Shown here piece after piece: positions 22,912 through 47,681 of a stretch of 64,000 bases of DNA. The DNA comes from a phage: the NCBI GenBank assembly GCA_011816565.1, contig GCA_011816565.1_3614.1; one strand, written 5' to 3'. Both the position numbers and the translations under genes were made by a program. Under the pieces are notes generated by a model that ran no database searches, was not told where the DNA came from, and saw only the letters and a program-made list of their open reading frames with translations. Positions within the stretch are counted from its first letter, which is position 1; each line of letters opens with the position of its first letter.

Positions 22912-23955
22912 TTATTTAACGTGTTTGAAAATACCTGCCAACTCAGTCATTGTCATGCGAGTGGTCTTCATAAGATCTGTCATGGCTTTTTCCATAATTG
23001 GAGATACTACCATAAAGTTTCCTTTAGTGAAACCTTTATTCCAGTCGGTCACCAACAGCGGTTTAAGTCCAGCTCCGAGACGTTCACCAGTTAAAGCACA
23101 GCATTTGCGAATATATGAACTCTTAAATTGGCTGAACGACAGATCAACTTTCATACCTGCATCGTAGAACGTTTGACAATAGAAAGTGTAAGCCTTAGCA
23201 ACCTCAACATCATCAGGCAGTGCAGGAACCTCTTCTGCAATCTCCTCTTCGACCTCCTGAGGCTCTTTTTCCTCTTCAGAGTTCTGTTCTTCAATTTCTT
23301 CTGTCACAGTTTCGTTTACGATATCTGAAATGTGTTTGTTGGCTGCACGATCAGCCATGAAATTTTTAAAGTCCTGCATTGGTGACATATCTTCTTCCTC
23401 TTCGTCAAAAAGTGCTAGTTTATCTTCTTCTGTCCCGTATTGCAAGATGAAATCTTCGAAAGTATAATCACCTTTCAATTTCTCCATACGCTCTTCGCTC
23501 AGGTGGAGCATCATCTGCTGGACAATTTTTCGATCAGTTTTGTCTTTTATCAATATTGCAGTCTTTTTATCTACCAGACAGTCCTTCAGAGCGTTGCACC
23601 TCAACCCTACCACACAACAATTATCAATTGCGTAAGGACCTTCATCATCTATCCGCTCCAGAGATGGATAGAAAGGATTTCCCAGTCCGTTTTCATCTGT
23701 GTGCATGTCGAAAGGTATAAGGGTGTAGTCGCATACCCCTTCCCCTAAAAGTTTTTTACCAAATAGTAGGTATTCTTCCCACGACAGGTCGAACTCTATA
23801 TCTCGTTTCCGTGCATTATTCTGTTTGCGTCTATATTTTTTGAGCAGGCGCTCTAACTCTTCTGGTGTATAATATTTTTCAAGATTCATGAGTTGTCTCT
23901 CGTGCTCTGTAAGTGAAGAAATCTTATCAATTGTCTCAACAGATGTCAACATCAA
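22912..23955 (-). CDS. tandem HNH-like nuclease-domain protein
   Basis: Two repeats of a C..YT/TG ... S-L-E-R-I-D-D ... DN motif separated by a highly acidic linker; motif resembles zinc-ribbon/HNH homing-endonuclease cores. Confidence 0.4.
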   Translation of the reverse strand: MMLTSVETIDKISSLTEHERQLMNLEKYYTPEELERLLKKYRRKQNNARKRDIEFDLSWEEYLLFGKKLLGEGVCDYTLIPFDMHTDENGLGNPFYPSLERIDDEGPYAIDNCCVVGLRCNALKDCLVDKKTAILIKDKTDRKIVQQMMLHLSEERMEKLKGDYTFEDFILQYGTEEDKLALFDEEEEDMSPMQDFKNFMADRAANKHISDIVNETVTEEIEEQNSEEEKEPQEVEEEIAEEVPALPDDVEVAKAYTFYCQTFYDAGMKVDLSFSQFKSSYIRKCCALTGERLGAGLKPLLVTDWNKGFTKGNFMVVSPIMEKAMTDLMKTTRMTMTELAGIFKHVK

Positions 23956-36203: not shown

Positions 36204-36968
36204 TTGAAATTTATCTACAAAGAACACTACCACAAAGGTGTTGTGTGGAGTCTATTTGACGGGTCTGGTGGTGCAGTCATTGACTGGGCAAAAGCTGGGT
36301 ACCTGTGCCTGTGCTTTAATGCAGAAGGCGCTGATCACGGCAGTTATGCAGAGGTGATCACCGATCATCCCAACATTCACTATGTGGACTATTGGATTGA
36401 CCCGTGGTTCCCTCAGGAAACTTTTTGCATGTATCCGGCTCCAGATTTTATTCTTGCATTTCCTCCGTGCACGCATTTAGCGGTATCAGGTGCTGCACAT
36501 TTTAAGAAAAAGCTGGCTAAGGATCCTTTGATCCAAATTAATGCTGTAAAGGATGCTCGGGTTGCGGAAGAGCTGGGAGAGATTTACGATTGCCCGTGGC
36601 ATGTAGAGAATCCTGTTGGTGTTATGTCCACACTGTGGCGCAAACCTGATTACCGTTTTCATCCTTCTGACTATGGCGGGTATTTACCGGAGGATGATGT
36701 AAACCCCTGGTTTCCTGAATTTATAGCTCCACGTGATGCCTATCCAAAAATAACTTGCGGCTGGATAGGTAATGGATTTATAATCCCGGCCACAAAACCT
36801 GTCCAGCAAATAGTTGACGCGGTTAGCGGGTATTCCATGCAACACGCCAAGCTGGGTGGAAAGAGTGCAAGAACGAAGATGATCCGAAGCCTCACACCAC
36901 GTGGCTGGGCAAAAGCCGTATTCTTAGCAAACGAGCCTGCAGTAAGGAGCAGAATTAATGGGAAGTAA
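36204..36968 (+). CDS. C5-cytosine methyltransferase-like protein (start uncertain)
   Basis: Motif I-like (LFDGSGG), Pro-Cys motif IV-like (FPPCTHLA, T in place of the usual Q) and ENV-like motif VI (HVENPVGV). Track start 36174 (GTG) lies inside the terminator hairpin; TTG at 36204 follows AGGAGA. No ATG available. Confidence 0.4.
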   Translation: MKFIYKEHYHKGVVWSLFDGSGGAVIDWAKAGYLCLCFNAEGADHGSYAEVITDHPNIHYVDYWIDPWFPQETFCMYPAPDFILAFPPCTHLAVSGAAHFKKKLAKDPLIQINAVKDARVAEELGEIYDCPWHVENPVGVMSTLWRKPDYRFHPSDYGGYLPEDDVNPWFPEFIAPRDAYPKITCGWIGNGFIIPATKPVQQIVDAVSGYSMQHAKLGGKSARTKMIRSLTPRGWAKAVFLANEPAVRSRINGK

Positions 36969-39036
36969 ATTTATGGCATCTGCATACAACCGTTTCGGTG
37001 AGCCAAACCCGAAAGCAACTAAGTATAAAAGTGGGGGAAGTGTGAAACGAGACTATCGTGATGAAAAAGAAGTTGAAACTGTAGAGACTGTTTTAGAAAA
37101 TACTAAAATTGTCCCTGTCCCACAACAAAATATCGGTCTGATGGCTGCACAATATTTTGGTGTGCGATCAGCATTGTCCCAAGAAGACGGTGTGACAGTC
37201 ACTGCAACATATTTCCCATATTACGACCGCTACGGAAATCTGTCTGGTTTCAAAAAGCGTGACTGGACTATTCCTAAAGAGCAAAGGGGCCATTTCTCCG
37301 TTGTTGGCATCGTAAAGGCCAACTCCCAGATGTTTGGTCAAAAGCTGTGTGCATCTTCCAACAACCGTAAGCAGATTAACGTTTGTGAGGGAGAAGGTGA
37401 TGTTATTGCAGCATGGCAGGCTGCATATCAGATACAAGTAAAAGGGATTCTCACCAACGCTAAAGCCCCGGCAAAGGTGAAGCAGTGGGCTAAAGAGGTC
37501 CAGGACGGGATCGACGCAGTTATCAACGGTGGTGATCTGGCAGGAAAACCCTGCCTGCCTTTTGTTGGAATTAACTGTGGATGTGCAAACGCAGTAGATA
37601 CTTTTGCAAACAATGAGAAGTTTATCCGTAGCTATGGAACAGTTGTGCTGGCAATGGATAACGATGCAGCTAACGAGGTAGAGAAGCAAAAACACGTCAT
37701 TAAAGGTGTTGAGGCCACGCACAATATCGCAGCATTTTTGATGGCTGATAACGTTTACCACGTAGAATACCCTGGTGAAGTAAATGACCCTGACGGTGTA
37801 AAAGATATCCGAGACATGCTGAAGGCTAAAAAGCTGGAAGATATTGTCAACATGTTCCGGCACCCTGTTAAATATGTGCCTGATGCTGTGTCGGATTTAG
37901 AAGACTTCTCTATCGAGTCTTTGCGGAAAAAGACTTCCAACGGGGTAGATATCAGTGCAGAGTTCCCAAAACTGCAAAAAATGCTAAAAGGCTTGCACAA
38001 AGGGACACTTGTAATGCTTACAGGTCCATCAGGCGGCGGTAAAACAACCGTGGCTAAAAAACTGGAACACTGTATTGCAAGATACCTAATGGACCCGACA
38101 TGCCCGAAGGCCGATGACTATGAAGAGGATGATCGTCTATGCATGATTCATCTTGAGGAGGACCCAGAGGAAGCAATTAACTCCTTGTATGCAAACCAGT
38201 TAGGGTTTGATGTTAAAGAGTTTGTTGAAGATCCTAGCCAGTTTTTAACTGATCAAGAACACGCAGAGATTCACCAATCATGGGCAAAAGCTGGAAAAAT
38301 CAAAGTGTTCAAACATTTCGGGTCTATTCCAGTGGACGAGTTGATTACCAAGCTTAAGCAAATGGTTTGCCTGTACCATTGTCGTTATATTGTGCTGGAT
38401 CACCTGTCCATGGTAATTTCAGGGCTTAATGTTAAGGATGAGCGAAAAGAACTGGACATGGCTATGACCCAACTGGCTGCGTTTTGTAAGCAGTTTAACG
38501 TGTTTATCTTGGTGATCGCTCACCTCAAACGTACAGAGATTGTGCCCCCTAAGGACAAGGATGGTAACCCATTACCTTTCTGGTATCCTGTGCGAAAAGA
38601 GAATTTGCGAGGATCGGCTGGGCTTGAACAGTTGAGTTGGGTAGTCATAGGTGTCGAGGCCGAAGAAATGGTGGATCGTTCTCGTGGGCGTGTCCGTCTG
38701 GTAGGTCTTAAAAACCGTCCAGCAAAAACTTTAGGTATTGCTGACACTTTAGTTATGGACCCACATACAGGTAAGTTCCATGATGCCAGTAATTGGTACT
38801 GGGACAAAGAAATGCAAATGTTTACAGATGGAGAAGGTGGGGAGGTTGTTTGGAGACCTCAGGCTATGTTTGAGGATCAGGAGCATGCAGTTGTAGAAAC
38901 ACCTATGGGCAAGGTTGTGGCTGATAAGGTTGTAACTCCTACTGTTAAGCCTGTTGACACGCAGGAAGACCTCCAGTACGATGATCCGTCCTCTGACCAG
39001 GTTCCTGGTTTTGAGGATGATGAAACGCCTTTTTAA
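36958..39036 (+). CDS. DNA primase-helicase (TOPRIM + DnaB-like)
   Basis: TOPRIM motifs (VCEGEGDVIAAW; VVLAMDNDAANE), Walker A (GPSGGGKTT) and DnaB-like helicase motifs (RYIVLDHLSMV). Confidence 0.65.
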   Translation: MGSKFMASAYNRFGEPNPKATKYKSGGSVKRDYRDEKEVETVETVLENTKIVPVPQQNIGLMAAQYFGVRSALSQEDGVTVTATYFPYYDRYGNLSGFKKRDWTIPKEQRGHFSVVGIVKANSQMFGQKLCASSNNRKQINVCEGEGDVIAAWQAAYQIQVKGILTNAKAPAKVKQWAKEVQDGIDAVINGGDLAGKPCLPFVGINCGCANAVDTFANNEKFIRSYGTVVLAMDNDAANEVEKQKHVIKGVEATHNIAAFLMADNVYHVEYPGEVNDPDGVKDIRDMLKAKKLEDIVNMFRHPVKYVPDAVSDLEDFSIESLRKKTSNGVDISAEFPKLQKMLKGLHKGTLVMLTGPSGGGKTTVAKKLEHCIARYLMDPTCPKADDYEEDDRLCMIHLEEDPEEAINSLYANQLGFDVKEFVEDPSQFLTDQEHAEIHQSWAKAGKIKVFKHFGSIPVDELITKLKQMVCLYHCRYIVLDHLSMVISGLNVKDERKELDMAMTQLAAFCKQFNVFILVIAHLKRTEIVPPKDKDGNPLPFWYPVRKENLRGSAGLEQLSWVVIGVEAEEMVDRSRGRVRLVGLKNRPAKTLGIADTLVMDPHTGKFHDASNWYWDKEMQMFTDGEGGEVVWRPQAMFEDQEHAVVETPMGKVVADKVVTPTVKPVDTQEDLQYDDPSSDQVPGFEDDETPF

Positions 39037-39094
39037 TGTTTAACAAAGAGTGGGAGGGGTAGTACAACCGCCTCCCCTTTAAGGAGAACACTTT

Positions 39095-39829
39095 ATGAAC
39101 GAGTTCAGAGATCACTGTGTAGCCAATCACTTGTGGTCAGAAATATTGGAGTATGACGGTCAAAATCTTTTTTGGAAGATAGACATTCTGGCAGGCAGCG
39201 GTGTAGGATATGTTAAAACTTCAGCAGGCTCCAGAGCTGACAAGGGGCAAGATGCTGATGGCAGGCCTGTGGTTAGTCTAGGAAAGCATTGCACTAAAGG
39301 TGCCCACGTTATAATCTGGGAAATGTTTAACGGTCCTGTACCAGAAGGGTATGAGGTTGACCACATCAAGGAGATAAGGGAAACAGGTGGTGTGGCTGAC
39401 AACAGTATTCAAAATTTGCAACTACTCGAACCTACAGATAACAAAAAGAAAAGTTGCAAGATACCTCGTAGCAACAACAAATCTGGCAGGGTCGGGGTGC
39501 ACTATTCTGAAGAAAGAGAGGCGTGGGTAGCTCAAGGCACAGACTCTGTAGGTGAAAGGGTCTGGCTAGGCCAGTACAGAACTTTTGAAGAGGCAGAGTG
39601 GGCAAGAAAGTTCTTCGAAGATAATGGTTTTTCGCACAAGAGTGGAAGAGCCGTGCAGTATAATAACACCAGCGGTTGCTCAGGGGTGAATTGGGATAAA
39701 ACCCATGAAAGATGGGTAGCCAGAATTTATGTAGATGGTAAAAGGAAATGCCTTGGGTATTTCAAGAACAGGGACGATGCAATAGCTGCAAGAAAGAATG
39801 CTGAGAAGACACAGGAGGAGACAGTATGA
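39095..39829 (+). CDS. HNH homing endonuclease with AP2-type DNA-binding domains
   Basis: HNH core (YEVDHIKEIRETGGVADNSIQNLQLL) and two AP2-like repeats (SGRVGVHYSEEREAWVAQ; SGVNWDKTHERWVARIYVDGKRKCLGYF); free-standing between primase-helicase and polymerase; stop overlaps polymerase start. Confidence 0.65.
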   Translation: MNEFRDHCVANHLWSEILEYDGQNLFWKIDILAGSGVGYVKTSAGSRADKGQDADGRPVVSLGKHCTKGAHVIIWEMFNGPVPEGYEVDHIKEIRETGGVADNSIQNLQLLEPTDNKKKSCKIPRSNNKSGRVGVHYSEEREAWVAQGTDSVGERVWLGQYRTFEEAEWARKFFEDNGFSHKSGRAVQYNNTSGCSGVNWDKTHERWVARIYVDGKRKCLGYFKNRDDAIAARKNAEKTQEETV

Positions 39830-42603
39830 GTAATTGGTGCTTCGATCTGGAGGCCTCCGGGCTCTTGGAAGACCCAGATCTTTATTATCACTGCGGTCTG
39901 TTTAAAGAGCTGAATAAGAACCGTTTTATGCTGTTCCTTCCTCTAAATGACCGCACACACTACTCCGAGGAGGATATAGAGAAGGCTAAGAACTTTATTC
40001 TGGCAAAGAAAACTCTTTATAAAGATTTTGAAGTTCGCATAGCAGATTTTTCGGAGTTGGAAGGTTGGCTTACAGGAAATTCCGACTGGTCACCAACAGC
40101 TTTGAACTGCCATAACTGCTACAGTTATGACTTTATGCTGATGGAGAGATTATCCGGTATTCATTTTGATATGTTCCGTGATCCTAAATGTATGGGGACT
40201 ATCAACGACCACCAGGTTAACCTGTTCGATACGTTGGCGATGAGCCGAATCTTGTGGCCTGATCGCCCTTTACCAAAAGGTTGTCCGGACTCTGTATTCA
40301 ACCCGGTTACTAAGAAAATGCAGCCTGTTGGTCCTCACGGCCTTATGGCATGGGGCTACGCCCTTGGTAACCAGAAAGTTCAAATTGATGACTGGCGCGA
40401 TCTTCCGTTGTGGAAGTATGTGGATCGTGTATTTGAGGACGTTATCATCCAGGAGCTGCTCTGGAAAGAACTGGTAGCGGAATCAAAAGGTGTATTCTAC
40501 GGCAAATCTGACATGCAGAACTTTATGTACGATCCTGCCAAAGAGAAGCCGAAAGGGTTCAAGAAGATCACCTGGAAGAACGCATTACGCCGAGGCATGC
40601 TGCAGCACTTCCTGATGGAGCTGCAGGCCCGTCAGGGTGTGTATTTCGACATAGACGGGGCTATTGCTTTACGTGACCGTTGCGATGCGTGGATGAAAGA
40701 AATAGCTGATCGTGTTGAACCACAACTACCTTTAAAAGAGCTGTCAATGTCTCAGCGGCCTAAGTTCCCTGAAAAGCCGTTTAACCAGGATGGGACAATC
40801 TCCAATAATGGTTGGAAATGGTTAAAAGACAAGCTTGGCTACCCTGTGGACATGAGTGCTTTAGAATTCAAAGCTCCTCCTAAGCGAGCATTTACCTCCA
40901 CAGGAGATGTCAGTAAGATGGGGATAAAATGGTGTGAAGAGATGGGCTGTAAAGACCCAGACAAGATGGCTGATTTCTTGAGAGGTTATATTAAGGGCAC
41001 CTCCACACCACAACCTTTACCTAAAGAGCTGATGGATCAGGCAATAAGCGATCTGCAGCAGAAGCGAATGCCTGACTGCAAGATACCTATGAAAATCAGC
41101 AATCAGGACGATATTAAGCGATACCTGATCAGTGCTGGTTGGCTTCCGACAATGTGGAGAACTAAGGATGTAACTAAAGACAGCAAGAAGAAAGCTCTAC
41201 CTGATGCAGATGTTGATGCACGAGTATATGCATATATGGACGAGCTTTTAGAGTCAGAGTATTGTGACCTGATTATCAACTTCTGGAACAAAACTGATGC
41301 TAAGTTCCAGACAACCGTGCACAAGTTCCGAAGCTTTCCTAACTCCGAAAGGATTAAAAAGGAAGTATTCGGGAAAATACGTAGAAAAGCTAGGGCACTT
41401 ATTACTTCTCCGCAACTGAAAGATACGTTTGGACACCTATGCCCGAATCTTGAAAAATTGAACGGAGAGATGGCTAAAGATATCGTCTTGTGGTTATCAT
41501 TGCGAAACCGCAGATCGGTCCTTGATCCAATCAAGGAGGATAAGGTTGATACTGGTCTTCTTAATCACCCACGTTTGAAGATTGACCATAAGCTTCCTGC
41601 TAAAAGTTCTGGATTAACAAACACTTCCCGACAGAAACACAGTATTTGTGCAAACATGCCTAAACCATCTCCTAAAGTGGTTATGGGTAAAGAGATGCGT
41701 AGTCTGTGGGGTGTTCCTCCAGGATACTTTGAGATCGGTATTGACGGGTCCAACTTAGAGCAGCTTATCGGGGCTTGGGGTGCCTTTGAGTTCGACAACG
41801 GCCTGTATTACGATGTTGTAAGTAACGGGGACGCACACCAAAACAATGCTGAGGCATATACAAAAGTAGCAGGTAGAGAGGTGTCTCGTAACGACGGTAA
41901 ACCTATCACGTATGGGGTTATGTATGGGGCACAAAAAGATAAAGTTGCAGATATGCTGGACATCTCTCCAGAGTTGGGACAAAGGGTAATCGATGCACTC
42001 TGGGATGCCAACCCTGGTCTTAAGGGGCGTAAAGAAGATCTGGAGAAATTCTGGGAAGCAACGGGTAAGAAGTTTATCTACTCTTTTGATGGTCATGCTA
42101 TCTGGACCCGATCTAAACACTCTTTACTTAATGCATACCAACAAAATGGCGGCGCATCGTTGTGTGACTTAGTTGGGATACTCATGCACCATCAAATGGT
42201 GAAGCGTGGGTGGTACGATGAAGGTGTTCGTCGTATTATCTATTACCATGACGAATATCAGCTTCAAGTCCCTGACACACCGAAGTATAAGACTGTGTAC
42301 ACCTTCGACACAATCGAAGAACTGGAAGCATTTAAGGCAGAGCAGGAGGCCAAACTTCATGTGTTCGACGGTCATAAGTACAAAAAGGCACGCAAGGATG
42401 AGGACGGAAACGAAGTGGTTGACAGAGACGGAAACACGGTGTACGATCCTATCCTGAACGATGACGGAAAGCTTGAACTTATCTGGAGCCCTGTGGGTGA
42501 AATGGTGGTGCATTGCTTCTGGCAAGCTTCTAAAATGATGGGCGTCCCGTTCCAGATCACAGGTGAATACTTGTGTGGTCGTAATTGGGGTGATTGTCAC
42601 TAA
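39826..42603 (+). CDS. family A DNA polymerase with 3'-5' exonuclease domain
   Basis: Exo I motif (CFDLEASG), motif A-like (IGIDGSNLEQ), motif B-like (KPITYGVMYGAQ), motif C (YYHDEYQL). Confidence 0.7.
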   Translation: MSNWCFDLEASGLLEDPDLYYHCGLFKELNKNRFMLFLPLNDRTHYSEEDIEKAKNFILAKKTLYKDFEVRIADFSELEGWLTGNSDWSPTALNCHNCYSYDFMLMERLSGIHFDMFRDPKCMGTINDHQVNLFDTLAMSRILWPDRPLPKGCPDSVFNPVTKKMQPVGPHGLMAWGYALGNQKVQIDDWRDLPLWKYVDRVFEDVIIQELLWKELVAESKGVFYGKSDMQNFMYDPAKEKPKGFKKITWKNALRRGMLQHFLMELQARQGVYFDIDGAIALRDRCDAWMKEIADRVEPQLPLKELSMSQRPKFPEKPFNQDGTISNNGWKWLKDKLGYPVDMSALEFKAPPKRAFTSTGDVSKMGIKWCEEMGCKDPDKMADFLRGYIKGTSTPQPLPKELMDQAISDLQQKRMPDCKIPMKISNQDDIKRYLISAGWLPTMWRTKDVTKDSKKKALPDADVDARVYAYMDELLESEYCDLIINFWNKTDAKFQTTVHKFRSFPNSERIKKEVFGKIRRKARALITSPQLKDTFGHLCPNLEKLNGEMAKDIVLWLSLRNRRSVLDPIKEDKVDTGLLNHPRLKIDHKLPAKSSGLTNTSRQKHSICANMPKPSPKVVMGKEMRSLWGVPPGYFEIGIDGSNLEQLIGAWGAFEFDNGLYYDVVSNGDAHQNNAEAYTKVAGREVSRNDGKPITYGVMYGAQKDKVADMLDISPELGQRVIDALWDANPGLKGRKEDLEKFWEATGKKFIYSFDGHAIWTRSKHSLLNAYQQNGGASLCDLVGILMHHQMVKRGWYDEGVRRIIYYHDEYQLQVPDTPKYKTVYTFDTIEELEAFKAEQEAKLHVFDGHKYKKARKDEDGNEVVDRDGNTVYDPILNDDGKLELIWSPVGEMVVHCFWQASKMMGVPFQITGEYLCGRNWGDCH

Positions 42604-42652
42604 TGTAAACTATCAACACATGGAAGTGTTGTTGAGCAAAGAGGAGACTTTT

Positions 42653-42970
42653 ATGGTAGTAGAACCAACAAAAACATTTACATCCATGACTATCCCTGTT
42701 ATTATGCAGGTGGAGTGTGTTCAGGTATCTCAAGTGTGGCCTGGCACTAAAATCCCGACAGGGCCTGATTTCTTTCAGGTTGGGAAAGTGTACAATGTCT
42801 GGAAGGCACCAGATTGTTACCCTTTCATTAAAGAGAAGGCACCAAATTGCTACCCCTTCATTAAAGATGACCGTGGGATGCTGTGGTATCTTGGAAATGA
42901 TTTGACACTGCACCTTGGGAATGCTATTATTGCAGTATTCAGACTTAACAAGAAGGAGACCGATCAATGA
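42653..42970 (+). CDS. hypothetical protein with internal 11-aa tandem repeat
   Basis: Start at ATG after GAGGAG (track ORF from 42563 overlaps polymerase); contains APDCYPFIKEK/APNCYPFIKDD encoded by a 33-bp tandem duplication. Confidence 0.45.
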   Translation: MVVEPTKTFTSMTIPVIMQVECVQVSQVWPGTKIPTGPDFFQVGKVYNVWKAPDCYPFIKEKAPNCYPFIKDDRGMLWYLGNDLTLHLGNAIIAVFRLNKKETDQ

Positions 42971-45815: not shown

Positions 45816-47086
45816 TGAGCGTTATTCAACAATTTGCTAACCCGATGAATCCGCGTGAAACTGTTTTACTGGCTCACGGCATGATTAAACGTGTCAGCAT
45901 CAAACCTATCAAAGGTGCTGATCCTACAACAGGTATTAAAACCACTGTGTGGCAAGGTAAGAAAATTGAGTCCAGCCACACCATCTCTTTACTGATTTCT
46001 GAACTGGATTCCTCTGATAACCTGCTTCAAGGTGGTGAAGAAGTCTGGATCAGTATGGGTGATAAACTGCTTAAACCGGGTCATCAAGACTCTGTCTCTG
46101 TTAAAATTGATGACAAGTGGGAAACCGTAACGCCAGGATGGATCGTAAATATCCCTTTGAAGGCAAACGAGCATAACGGTAAGACCTATTACAAAGGCTC
46201 ACTGGCTAAGATGGTTAAGCTGGGTGCAGGAGAGGCTCCAGCAGCGACTCAGCAGCAAAAACAGCAACAAGGTGCACAATCACAAGGCCAGAAGCAGAAA
46301 CCTCAGCAGAATGCCAATCAGGACGTTTTACGCATCTATGGTGATGTGACTCAGATTGTTGGCAACGTGGTTACTGTTAATGACCACAAGATTGGCGAAG
46401 GTGCTATGGTTGTCACTGATGAGCAGCTTAAAGACCTGGTGGTAGGTGGTCGTGTTGCAGCCATTGTTGACAAAGACACCGGAAACATTATCAGTGGTTT
46501 CAAAGCCTACCCACCTAAGGCAGAGAACGGCACTCAAGGCTCTGGTGGCAAGCGTAAATCCTCTTACGACCCTATTGGTGTGGAGACGGGGCATAGCATC
46601 AATGCGTTGCAGATCATCCTGGATCGCGGGTTTAAGGTGGACGACCCACTAGGCGTGGCTAAAACACTGCACGTAGTCACCATTGAGCTTAAGAAAGAGT
46701 ATGCTCAAGCCACCAACCGAACTGAAGATGAGGTAGGTGCCAGTGTCGGTAATGCGGTGTTGAACGCTTGTCGCCGTATTGACAAGAAAACGAAAGTTGA
46801 TGATTTTGCAGTGGCAATTACTGCAGAAGCAAAAGATGTCTTGACTAATCTGGCTGAGCCGTTGTACGATTGGATCAAGAACGGTGCTGAGTCCACTGAC
46901 CATCAAGAACCTCAAGCTGCCAAACAGGAAGCCGCTCCACAGCAAAACACTGTAGACGCTCCTCCTGTAAATGATGCGGAAGATGACCCAATGGATCAGA
47001 ATCCAGCACAGTATGACTTCTGTGATGACATACCTTTCGCTCCGGTGGGTTTGCAATATGGCAAAAGTAGAATCCACGCATTGTAA
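45815..47086 (+). CDS. hypothetical protein with SSB-like acidic C-terminal DDIPF motif
   Basis: Two domains joined by a Gln-rich linker; C-terminal acidic tail ...[19 protein letters not shown] followed by 16 extra residues that overlap the start of the downstream nuclease gene. Confidence 0.45.
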
Positions 47087-47681
47087 GAGGTGCATCAAGT
47101 GCGGAGAGGTGAAAAACCTCTCCGAGTTCTACAAACACCCAAAGATGTCTGACGGTCATCTTAATAAGTGCAAAGAGTGTTGTAAGAAGGCCAGTAGGGA
47201 GGCTGACCAGTTTTCCCACGACTCTTCAGAAAAAGGTGTAATACGCGTGTTGTACAAGGCTCAAAAGTGCAACAGCAAGCAAAGAGGTCACCCTCCTCCG
47301 ACTTACACCAAAAAAGAGTTTAAGGAGTGGCTATACCTGAACGGTTACAAAGAGTTGTATGACCAGTGGGTAGCCAGCGGATACGACAAAAGGAAAAAGC
47401 CCTCTTGTGACAGGATAGATGATTTCAAAGGGTACTCTTTTGATAATATCCGTTTAACGACCTGGGGAGAAAATAAAGACAAGCAGACGGAGGATATTCT
47501 GTTGCATAGAAGCACCAGCGGTAGACGGTGTAAAAATGTAAGGAGGTTGGACATGAATGGCAACGTTCTTAAAGAATGGGTATCCCACAATTCTTGTAGA
47601 AGAGAAACCGGAATATGTGTTGATTACTACATTCATGAAAAAATTCCAGCTCCCGATGGATACCTCTATGAATACTTTTAG
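47058..47681 (+). CDS. zinc-ribbon / HNH-like endonuclease (possible homing endonuclease)
   Basis: Start at in-frame ATG (track ORF from 46971). N-terminal Cys pairs (CKRCIKCGE...KCKECC); HNH_3-like core with Arg in place of His ([24 protein letters not shown]). Confidence 0.4.

Follow-up and report, generated by a model that had tools for sequence, protein, structure and literature searches.

The window analysed here, the whole stretch of 64,000 nucleotides, is an rV5-like Vequintavirus, an E. coli myophage. In 123 phage records there is a match of 90-99% identity to its region 36900-42700, which holds, between a primase-helicase and a DNA polymerase gene, the reading frame for an endonuclease with HNH and AP2 parts. 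The locus is built up as follows.

36958..39036, plus strand: primase-helicase gene, the upstream neighbour (PHROG 239, E 7e-160; DnaB_C, AAA_25).
39047..39080, plus strand: conserved stem-loop, GGGAGGGG / invariant loop AGTACA / CCTCCCC (RNA folding, covariation).
39081..39086, plus strand: Shine-Dalgarno sequence AAGGAG (read from the sequence and from comparison with empty loci).
39095..39829, plus strand: free-standing HNH-AP2 endonuclease gene, ATG start, 244 aa (ORF list).
39813..39820, plus strand: replacement Shine-Dalgarno sequence for the polymerase, AGGAGGAG, within the last codons of the endonuclease gene (sequence).
39826..42603, plus strand: family-A (T7-like) DNA polymerase gene, the downstream neighbour, uninterrupted, 925 aa (PHROG 8888/17; DNA_pol_A).

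The endonuclease gene is embedded in the expression signals of its neighbour. AAGGAG sits 8 nt upstream of its reading frame and has two roles, serving the polymerase in genomes with an empty site and the endonuclease gene in filled genomes. The stop codon TGA (39827-39829) overlaps the polymerase ATG (39826-39828) in the tetranucleotide ATGA, an overlap of 4 nt. The old ribosome-binding site of the polymerase is taken over by the endonuclease gene, which provides a substitute, AGGAGGAG, and the ATGA overlap. These two would keep the polymerase translated in vivo, and all diverged alleles of the gene retain a motif of the GGAGG type at 6-9 nt upstream of the polymerase ATG. The stem-loop in front of AAGGAG folds with -22.8 kcal/mol (z -3.2) and has 11 pairs, with compensatory changes in 5 of them across three clades. 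It is identical in empty-site phages and, being common to filled and empty genomes, is therefore context that lies outside the mobile unit. With no more than three T behind it, this hairpin was not scored by the terminator scan, and the promoter scan gave nothing above chance (11 promoter-like sites, 10.9 expected).

The endonuclease gene is a separate reading frame with its own Shine-Dalgarno sequence, and the polymerase frame behind it is intact. An endonuclease encoded in a group I intron was considered and rejected, as an Rfam scan of the window returned neither an intron nor any other match and the gene lies upstream of the polymerase gene, not inside it. A profile built from homologues found this reading frame as its sole match in the window and no other copy of the HNH_3-AP2 type. 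The nearest solved relative of the polymerase is T7 DNA polymerase (E 5e-16 with the full-length query); its N-terminus alone gave no match in the PDB. As a separate observation, relatives of the phage have a group I intron elsewhere in the polymerase gene.

Three domains can be placed on the endonuclease.

39296..39442, plus strand: HNH_3 nuclease core, residues 68-116 (Pfam PF13392; D89, H90, N103, N107, N116).
39476..39625, plus strand: AP2 repeat 1, about residues 128-177 (Pfam AP2 stretch; beta-beta-beta-alpha at 135-177 in the model).
39662..39814, plus strand: AP2 repeat 2, about residues 190-240 (best Pfam AP2 stretch 194-223; pLDDT 84-89; Foldseek).

The nuclease part matches HNH_3 (PF13392) with E 5.2e-12 and 45.7 bits, well over the Pfam cut-off of 24.8, and the protein matches PHROG 99, 'HNH endonuclease', with E 1.8e-51; the generic HNH model PF01844 stays slightly under its Pfam cut-off. 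Aligning the window protein with ten database homologues, 11 sequences in all, shows D89, H90 and N103 in every sequence and N107 and N116 in nearly every one. The protein has a recognised homing-endonuclease family domain with intact catalytic residues, and its core reads D89-H90 ... N103 ... N107 ... N116, an H-N-N variant without zinc-binding Cys pairs. The preliminary description had called this core canonical, a wording that holds for the assignment to HNH and has to be qualified for the variant. It had also named two AP2-type repeats and the overlap of the endonuclease stop with the polymerase start, and both were borne out, the latter by the ATGA at 39826-39829. The AP2 family PF00847 gives two stretches with E 3.3e-7 and 30.9 bits, slightly under the cut-off of 33.3 bits, and the signature NTSG..GV...W.ARI....LG of repeat 2 is invariant in the 11-sequence alignment. 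An AlphaFold2 model built from this alignment has a mean pLDDT of 58.5 and is usable in the AP2 parts only, where it forms beta-beta-beta-alpha units at residues 135-177 and 198-243. In a Foldseek search the AP2 part matches TEM1 (7et5) with an rmsd of 1.5 A over 42 columns and probability 1.0; further AP2 matches are DNA-bound WRINKLED1 (7wq5) and a Plasmodium AP2 domain. The protein thus has two AP2 domains, the model and the Foldseek matches backing the sub-cut-off Pfam score. In the HNH region and the N-terminal 64 residues the model has low pLDDT. The HNH part is modelled as a strand at 87-90, a strand at 108-111 and a helix at 113-120, with pLDDT of 47-76, and Foldseek with this low-confidence model returned no HNH structure. 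A phmmer search of the endonuclease against the PDB gave chance-level matches only (E > 0.4), with no solved HNH relative found by sequence.

The gene is sporadic among close relatives. Two junction queries gave the same result, with an uninterrupted, empty site in 108 and a split, filled one in 10 of 118 related GenBank records, so that about one record in twelve carries the gene. The ten carrier records stand for eight distinct phages, JES2013, O157 typing phage 4, HdK5, navn, the 'Campylobacter' phages C2 and C5, WalterGehring and FFH2, and their proteins are 98.8-100% identical to that of the window, with 100% for JES2013 and O157 typing phage 4. Non-carrier records cover only 87% of the region query. 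In empty loci the polymerase ATG stands at locus coordinate 2696, the very coordinate of the endonuclease ATG in filled loci; the junction is otherwise collinear, and the indel boundaries are the same in 9/9 filled loci examined. The carrier records label the gene 'HNH endonuclease', 'AP2 domain protein' or 'putative homing endonuclease'. In JES2013 (P766_gp211, 'HNH endonuclease'), O157 typing phage 4 (ECTP4_00442, 'AP2 domain protein'), FFH2 (FG37_gp077), navn (navn_182) and WalterGehring (bas51_0076, 'putative homing endonuclease') it occupies the same slot with the same ATGA. A comparison of this junction in related phages had been proposed in the preliminary description, and the 10 filled and 108 empty sites contradict a universal presence of the gene. 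The insertion polymorphism, the separate reading frame and the lack of an intron agree with the earlier claim for the locus, that of an HNH-AP2 homing endonuclease which is free-standing and lies between primase-helicase and polymerase. All these population counts come from GenBank records; a scan of IMG/VR with the polymerase N-terminus added 7 loci, too small a number for such counts, that served as outgroups.

Comparison of filled and empty loci suggests that more than the reading frame is exchanged.

39090..39865, plus strand: inferred mobile cassette, made up of a 5-nt spacer that is replaced, the endonuclease ORF and 40 recoded nt at the start of the polymerase gene.
39833..39865, plus strand: polymerase nt 8-40, candidate recognition/immunity segment (33 bp) with 12 gene-linked differences.
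Filled allele, polymerase 5' end: ATGAGTAATTGGTGCTTCGATCTGGAGGCCTC(C/A)GGGCT(C/T)TTG, protein MSNWCFDLEASGLL.
Empty allele, polymerase 5' end: ATGAG(T/C)ATGTGGTC(T/G)TTCGA(T/C)TTTGAGTCATCCGGTTTGCTG, protein MSMWSFDFESSGLL.

Filled and empty genomes are alike up to ...CCCCTTTAAGGAGAAC, after which the spacer reads ACTTT in the former and TGTAT in the latter. The insertion point falls exactly between the Shine-Dalgarno sequence of the polymerase and its coding sequence, and the cassette of 776 bp replaces 45 nt of empty genomes, a net addition of 731 bp. Fixed differences were determined in a sample of 9 filled and 9 empty loci over 2695 nt upstream and 2400 nt downstream. There are 15 of them in these flanks of about 5.1 kb, and none lies outside 39090-39093 and polymerase nt 8-40. 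Upstream they occupy 39090, 39091 and 39093, within 5 nt of the gene, and in the polymerase nt 8, 9, 14, 15, 22, 24, 28, 30, 36, 37, 39 and 40. The divergence between filled and empty loci is 27% in polymerase nt 1-50, compared to about 2% elsewhere. Since the fixed differences are confined to these two stretches, the segregating unit should extend over approximately 39090-39865. The linked polymerase changes comprise M3N, S5C, F8L and S10A besides synonymous ones. They surround the DxE motif (D7, E9) encoded by nt 8-40, of which both residues are kept in filled and empty alleles and align with D5 and E7 of T7 DNA polymerase. From what is known of family-A polymerases we take D7 and E9 to be the Exo I motif of the proofreading exonuclease.

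The association between the gene and this polymerase 5' end is tight. The full filled-type sequence occurs in 0/108 empty records, with 92.7% identity for the best full-length match. Three empty GenBank phages (HMD-6, PDX and phita32) and one IMG/VR locus (L004) have hybrid alleles, empty-type at nt 8-15 and filled-type at nt 22-40, and these latter positions are therefore not strictly diagnostic. These hybrids may have arisen by recombination, may be escape variants, or may represent the background that the gene settled in first. A further polymerase 5' allele was seen in genomes of the AlexBoehm type.

The history of the cassette differs from that of its surroundings. Among seven distinct carriers its nucleotide diversity is 0.57%, compared to 2.2-2.9% in the adjacent 1-2.7 kb. 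The window copy and the JES2013 copy are identical, and the flanks of these two genomes are about 2% apart. Judged by flank sequence, carriers frequently have a non-carrier as nearest relative; over the left flank, WalterGehring differs from inoa at 4/2689 nt, C2 from inoa at 8 and the window from I29 at 24. Taken together, this pattern points to horizontal movement of the gene with co-conversion of adjacent sequence.

A similar picture emerges at a greater evolutionary distance. Database homologues of 62-85% identity were traced to contigs, and the four that were examined come from two other phage clades (64-84% amino acid identity) and all occupy the same slot between primase-helicase and polymerase, again overlapping the latter by 4 nt. 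Three of them (L028, L029 and L030) belong to a second clade, and their flanks are 91-95% nucleotide-identical to the non-carrier contigs L006-L010; the fourth (L026) belongs to a third clade and groups with the non-carrier L009. The identity of the endonuclease to the window protein fails to track that of the flanks: it is 81% in L026, where helicase and polymerase reach 56-58%, 84% in L030 (flanks 73-74%) and 66% in L028 (flanks 74-76%). Within the second clade the polymerase of non-carriers starts with MALF[CL]YDFE and that of carriers with MS[MVI]W[CL]FD, which is like the first clade, and in L029 the polymerase reverts to the second-clade type beyond roughly nt 40. The gene thus carries the polymerase's first codons along. 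The endonuclease of L029 is itself a mosaic, with an N-terminal part like that of L028 and a C-terminal part like those of the window and L030. Pairwise dN/dS between alleles is 0.07-0.24, and the protein is therefore under purifying selection.

These data bear on whether the gene is still functional. A relic, inactive or decaying and passively carried, would also be found sporadically if one old gain had been followed by recombination and loss. The low frequency of carriers (10/118 records) fits this view, as do the hybrid empty alleles of HMD-6 and L004, which could stem from loss or recombination. In HdK5 a 1-nt deletion in a G run shifts the frame, so some copies may indeed be decaying. 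However, 8/9 of the copies in the first clade are intact and differ at most at 7/735 nt, the dN/dS values between diverged alleles are low throughout, and the residues D-H...N...N are invariant or nearly so. In addition, the diversity of the cassette is 4-5 times below that of the flanks, and across clades the endonuclease is better conserved than its flanks (81% versus 56-58%), pointing to recent horizontal movement. We consider it unlikely that the gene is such a relic. In our view, ORF 39095-39829 probably encodes a free-standing homing endonuclease (HNH_3 plus AP2 type) that is active, or was so until recently, and has the polymerase 5' end as its target, a conclusion drawn from comparative sequence data.

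According to this homing model, the gene would move among co-infecting rV5-like phages by 'intronless homing'. The two AP2 repeats are proposed to bind the polymerase 5' end, that is the DNA of the Exo I motif, in genomes without the gene, and the HNH centre, with H90 as general base and D89 and N116 as metal ligands, would nick or cut the bound DNA. Recombinational repair from a co-infecting carrier would then introduce the gene and, along with it, a polymerase 5' end that is recoded and no longer cuttable, and the 12 linked substitutions would render carriers immune. Within about 2.5 kb on each side, the spacer and polymerase nt 8-40 hold the only gene-linked differences. The cut sites of free-standing T4 endonucleases often lie hundreds to thousands of bp away from the endonuclease gene (PMC2988022), and for this reason the true cut site could fall beyond the approximately +/-2.5 kb compared; the linked differences at the polymerase 5' end could then be plain hitch-hiking from the donor.

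A different benefit to the carrier is conceivable, in which the enzyme is mainly a weapon or exclusion factor that damages the polymerase gene of competitors and copying of its own gene is a by-product. The inferred target, the 5' end of an essential replication gene, would suit such a role, the molecular evidence is the same as that for homing, and marker exclusion by homing endonucleases is established for T-even phages (PMC2988022). On sequence data the two readings are inseparable. Nevertheless, the tight linkage of gene and recoded site and the fixed slot in three clades are predicted by homing and not required for a weapon, and we regard exclusion as the main role as improbable. Domestication for a phage function, as an AP2-type protein regulating the replication module or as an accessory HNH factor of the terminase-associated type, could draw on the two DNA-binding AP2 repeats and on the position of the gene downstream of signals normally serving the polymerase, a conserved hairpin and a ribosome-binding site, but it is most improbable, given that 108/118 otherwise near-identical phages do without the gene, which is hence dispensable, that no terminase adjoins it and that the nuclease residues are conserved. 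The narrower assignment as a terminase-associated HNH packaging factor was rejected because the neighbours are primase-helicase and polymerase and the gene is absent from 108/118 relatives.

If homing takes place as proposed, it might also affect the recipient. Each event would rewrite M3N, S5C, F8L and S10A around D7/E9 of the polymerase, and the endonuclease gene would displace the polymerase behind the hairpin and ribosome-binding site, a possible translational operator, so that fidelity or dosage of the polymerase could be altered. We hold this to be a rather doubtful extension of the homing model. Were it true, a selfish element would drive functional variation in an essential replication enzyme in at least three clades of Vequintavirinae.

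Two further reading frames of the window had been counted with this gene as nuclease-type selfish elements, at least three in total. This claim stands only in part. ORF 47058-47681 matches PHROG 1035, 'endonuclease VII' (E 4e-41), gave no match to Pfam and, as had been described, carries Arg in place of the HNH His (motif SCDRIDD...DNIRL in the translation). It is present in 50/118 records, and a 640-bp block (47039-47678) is missing from phage naam, which together make it an insertion polymorphism. ORF 22912-23955, for which the preliminary description gave no strand, lies on the minus strand and matches PHROG 3118, 'HNH endonuclease', as well as Srd/anti-sigma families. It was rejected as a mobile element, since it is found at full coverage in 117/119 relatives, mostly labelled anti-sigma or anti-termination factor, and therefore behaves as a core gene.

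The element at 39095-39829 is of a known kind, and the same protein has already been deposited and annotated. New here are the map of the cassette (39090-39865) and the candidate target segment over the Exo I motif. In a phage family that abounds in free-standing HNH homing endonucleases, a further one has little practical weight. The added value is modest and lies in a testable cassette map, a candidate 33-bp recognition/immunity segment and natural hybrids such as HMD-6. Isolates with and without the gene are held in public collections (BASEL, the Danish wastewater set), which makes for a convenient system, for instance for studying the way in which nicking HNH enzymes bring about homing. 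In Vequintavirus phylogenies the region is best avoided.

Homing endonucleases are common in this setting, and the BASEL paper describes larger phage genomes as infested with them (PMC8594841). Between the copies in rV5-like phages and the window copy there is no sequence difference of note, and their records hold automatic or comparative annotation only. In our literature search no study turned up in which the target site of these copies is mapped or their activity assayed. Intron-encoded phage enzymes, among them I-HmuI, have a phage family-A DNA polymerase gene as target, as is proposed for the window gene; unlike these enzymes, the window gene is free-standing. I-HmuI presumably has the same H-N-N type of catalytic motif as the window protein, and we expect it to be the archetype of the HNH_3 family.

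The best studied parallels come from T4. Free-standing phage HNH endonucleases, of which MobA and MobE are examples, act on their targets by nicking, and mixed infections lead to their over-inheritance (PMC2988022, PMC2790892); the HNH Mob enzymes of T4 are described to nick, not to cut (PMC2988022). As in the 'intronless homing' of MobA, MobE and the Seg enzymes, the window gene is free-standing and adjoins essential genes of nucleotide or DNA metabolism, it is sporadic among close relatives, and flanking markers are apparently co-converted (PMC2988022, PMC2790892). The window protein joins an HNH nuclease to a distinct DNA-binding region at the C-terminus, as MobA and MobE do, and differs from them in that its DNA-binding module is two AP2 repeats. 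A further difference to the T4 enzymes is that the linked differences of the window gene are confined to 1-40 nt from the insertion point.

Closer in domain composition are the HNH-AP2 endonucleases that are reported for phages RB49 and Felix 01, Trichodesmium and Tetrahymena (Magnani 2004, Wuitschick 2004, cited in PMC5318435; also PMC2993671). They share with the window protein an HNH part combined with one or more AP2 domains and the status of putative homing endonucleases, and differ in host genome and insertion site; the window protein has two AP2 repeats. The closest counterpart in position is CB7_54 of Pectobacterium phage CB7 (Certrevirus, same subfamily), a free-standing gene for an HNH protein, placed at the 5' end of the polymerase gene, for which RT-PCR showed that the transcript is unspliced and the gene hence free-standing (PMC7344957). 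Like the window protein, CB7_54 has an HNH_3 match (E 1e-11) and a C-terminal AP2-like segment, and its end overlaps the polymerase start. In contrast, it is only distantly related (36% identity over 58 aa), measures 188 aa with one AP2-like unit, and has a structural protein as upstream neighbour, where the window has the primase-helicase.

A stem-loop at 39047-39080 lies directly 5' of a Shine-Dalgarno sequence, which belongs to the polymerase in genomes without the endonuclease gene and to the endonuclease in those that carry it. The AGTACA loop is invariant, and a comparison of three phage clades reveals compensatory changes in five of the eleven stem pairs. Rfam gave no match. Possible roles of the stem-loop are those of translational operator, processing site or weak terminator. 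Among the phages that carry the endonuclease gene, HdK5 (L013 2696-3429) lacks 1 nt of a GGG run at nucleotide 464 of the gene, by which the gene is broken into two ORFs; the cause is a sequencing error or else the element's decay.

The polymerase gene of several relatives is itself interrupted by a group I intron, located exactly at the point that corresponds to 42249/42250 in the window, within the motif C codons IIYYH|DEYQL (loci L002, L003, L014 and L016). In navn, C2 and C5 the intron is 276 bp long and has no ORF (Rfam RF00028, 64.7 bits), while in FFH2, I29 and WalterGehring, among others, it measures about 842 bp and contains an HNH gene of 168 aa. The window polymerase is the intron-less allele, uninterrupted at 42249/42250. 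The same replication module harbors additional HNH_3 genes in two clade-2 contigs that carry the endonuclease gene:

L028:1200-1871, second gene of the HNH_3-AP2 type, close upstream of the primase-helicase
L030:7945-8604, gene of the NUMOD4/HNH_3 type, downstream of the polymerase

Genes for the primase-helicase and the polymerase are far longer, or split, in other clades. In a clade-2 non-carrier (L006), a clade-3 carrier (L026) and a clade-2 carrier (L029), the helicase ranges from 996 to more than 1311 aa, compared to 692 aa in the window, and the polymerase has 1149-1150 aa or is split at about 600 aa. This suggests that these genes contain inteins or introns which the window lacks.

Two further ORFs have nuclease-like annotations:

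47058-47681, + strand, EndoVII-like ORF (PHROG 1035)
22912-23955, - strand, 347-aa protein (PHROG 3118)

The EndoVII-like ORF contains a CDRID motif, with Arg at the position of His in HNH proteins, and one BASEL record lists it as a putative homing endonuclease. It is found in 50 of 118 relatives, is missing in naam, and forms a 640-bp presence/absence block (47039-47678), whose insertion also gives the upstream gene a different 3' end (423 aa vs 408 aa).

Sixteen GenBank records (MG0656xx, e.g. C2, C5, C7 and A147) are labelled 'UNVERIFIED Campylobacter phage'. Since they are 97-99% identical to the window's E. coli rV5-like genome, mislabelled hosts or contamination in these submissions are suggested.

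The ORF at 22912-23955 is kept in 117 of 119 relatives and is therefore a core gene. Both PHROG 3118 and PGAP label it 'HNH endonuclease'. The protein has ERID in place of the D-H motif, the T4 Srd/anti-sigma families match it as well, and its nuclease annotation looks doubtful.
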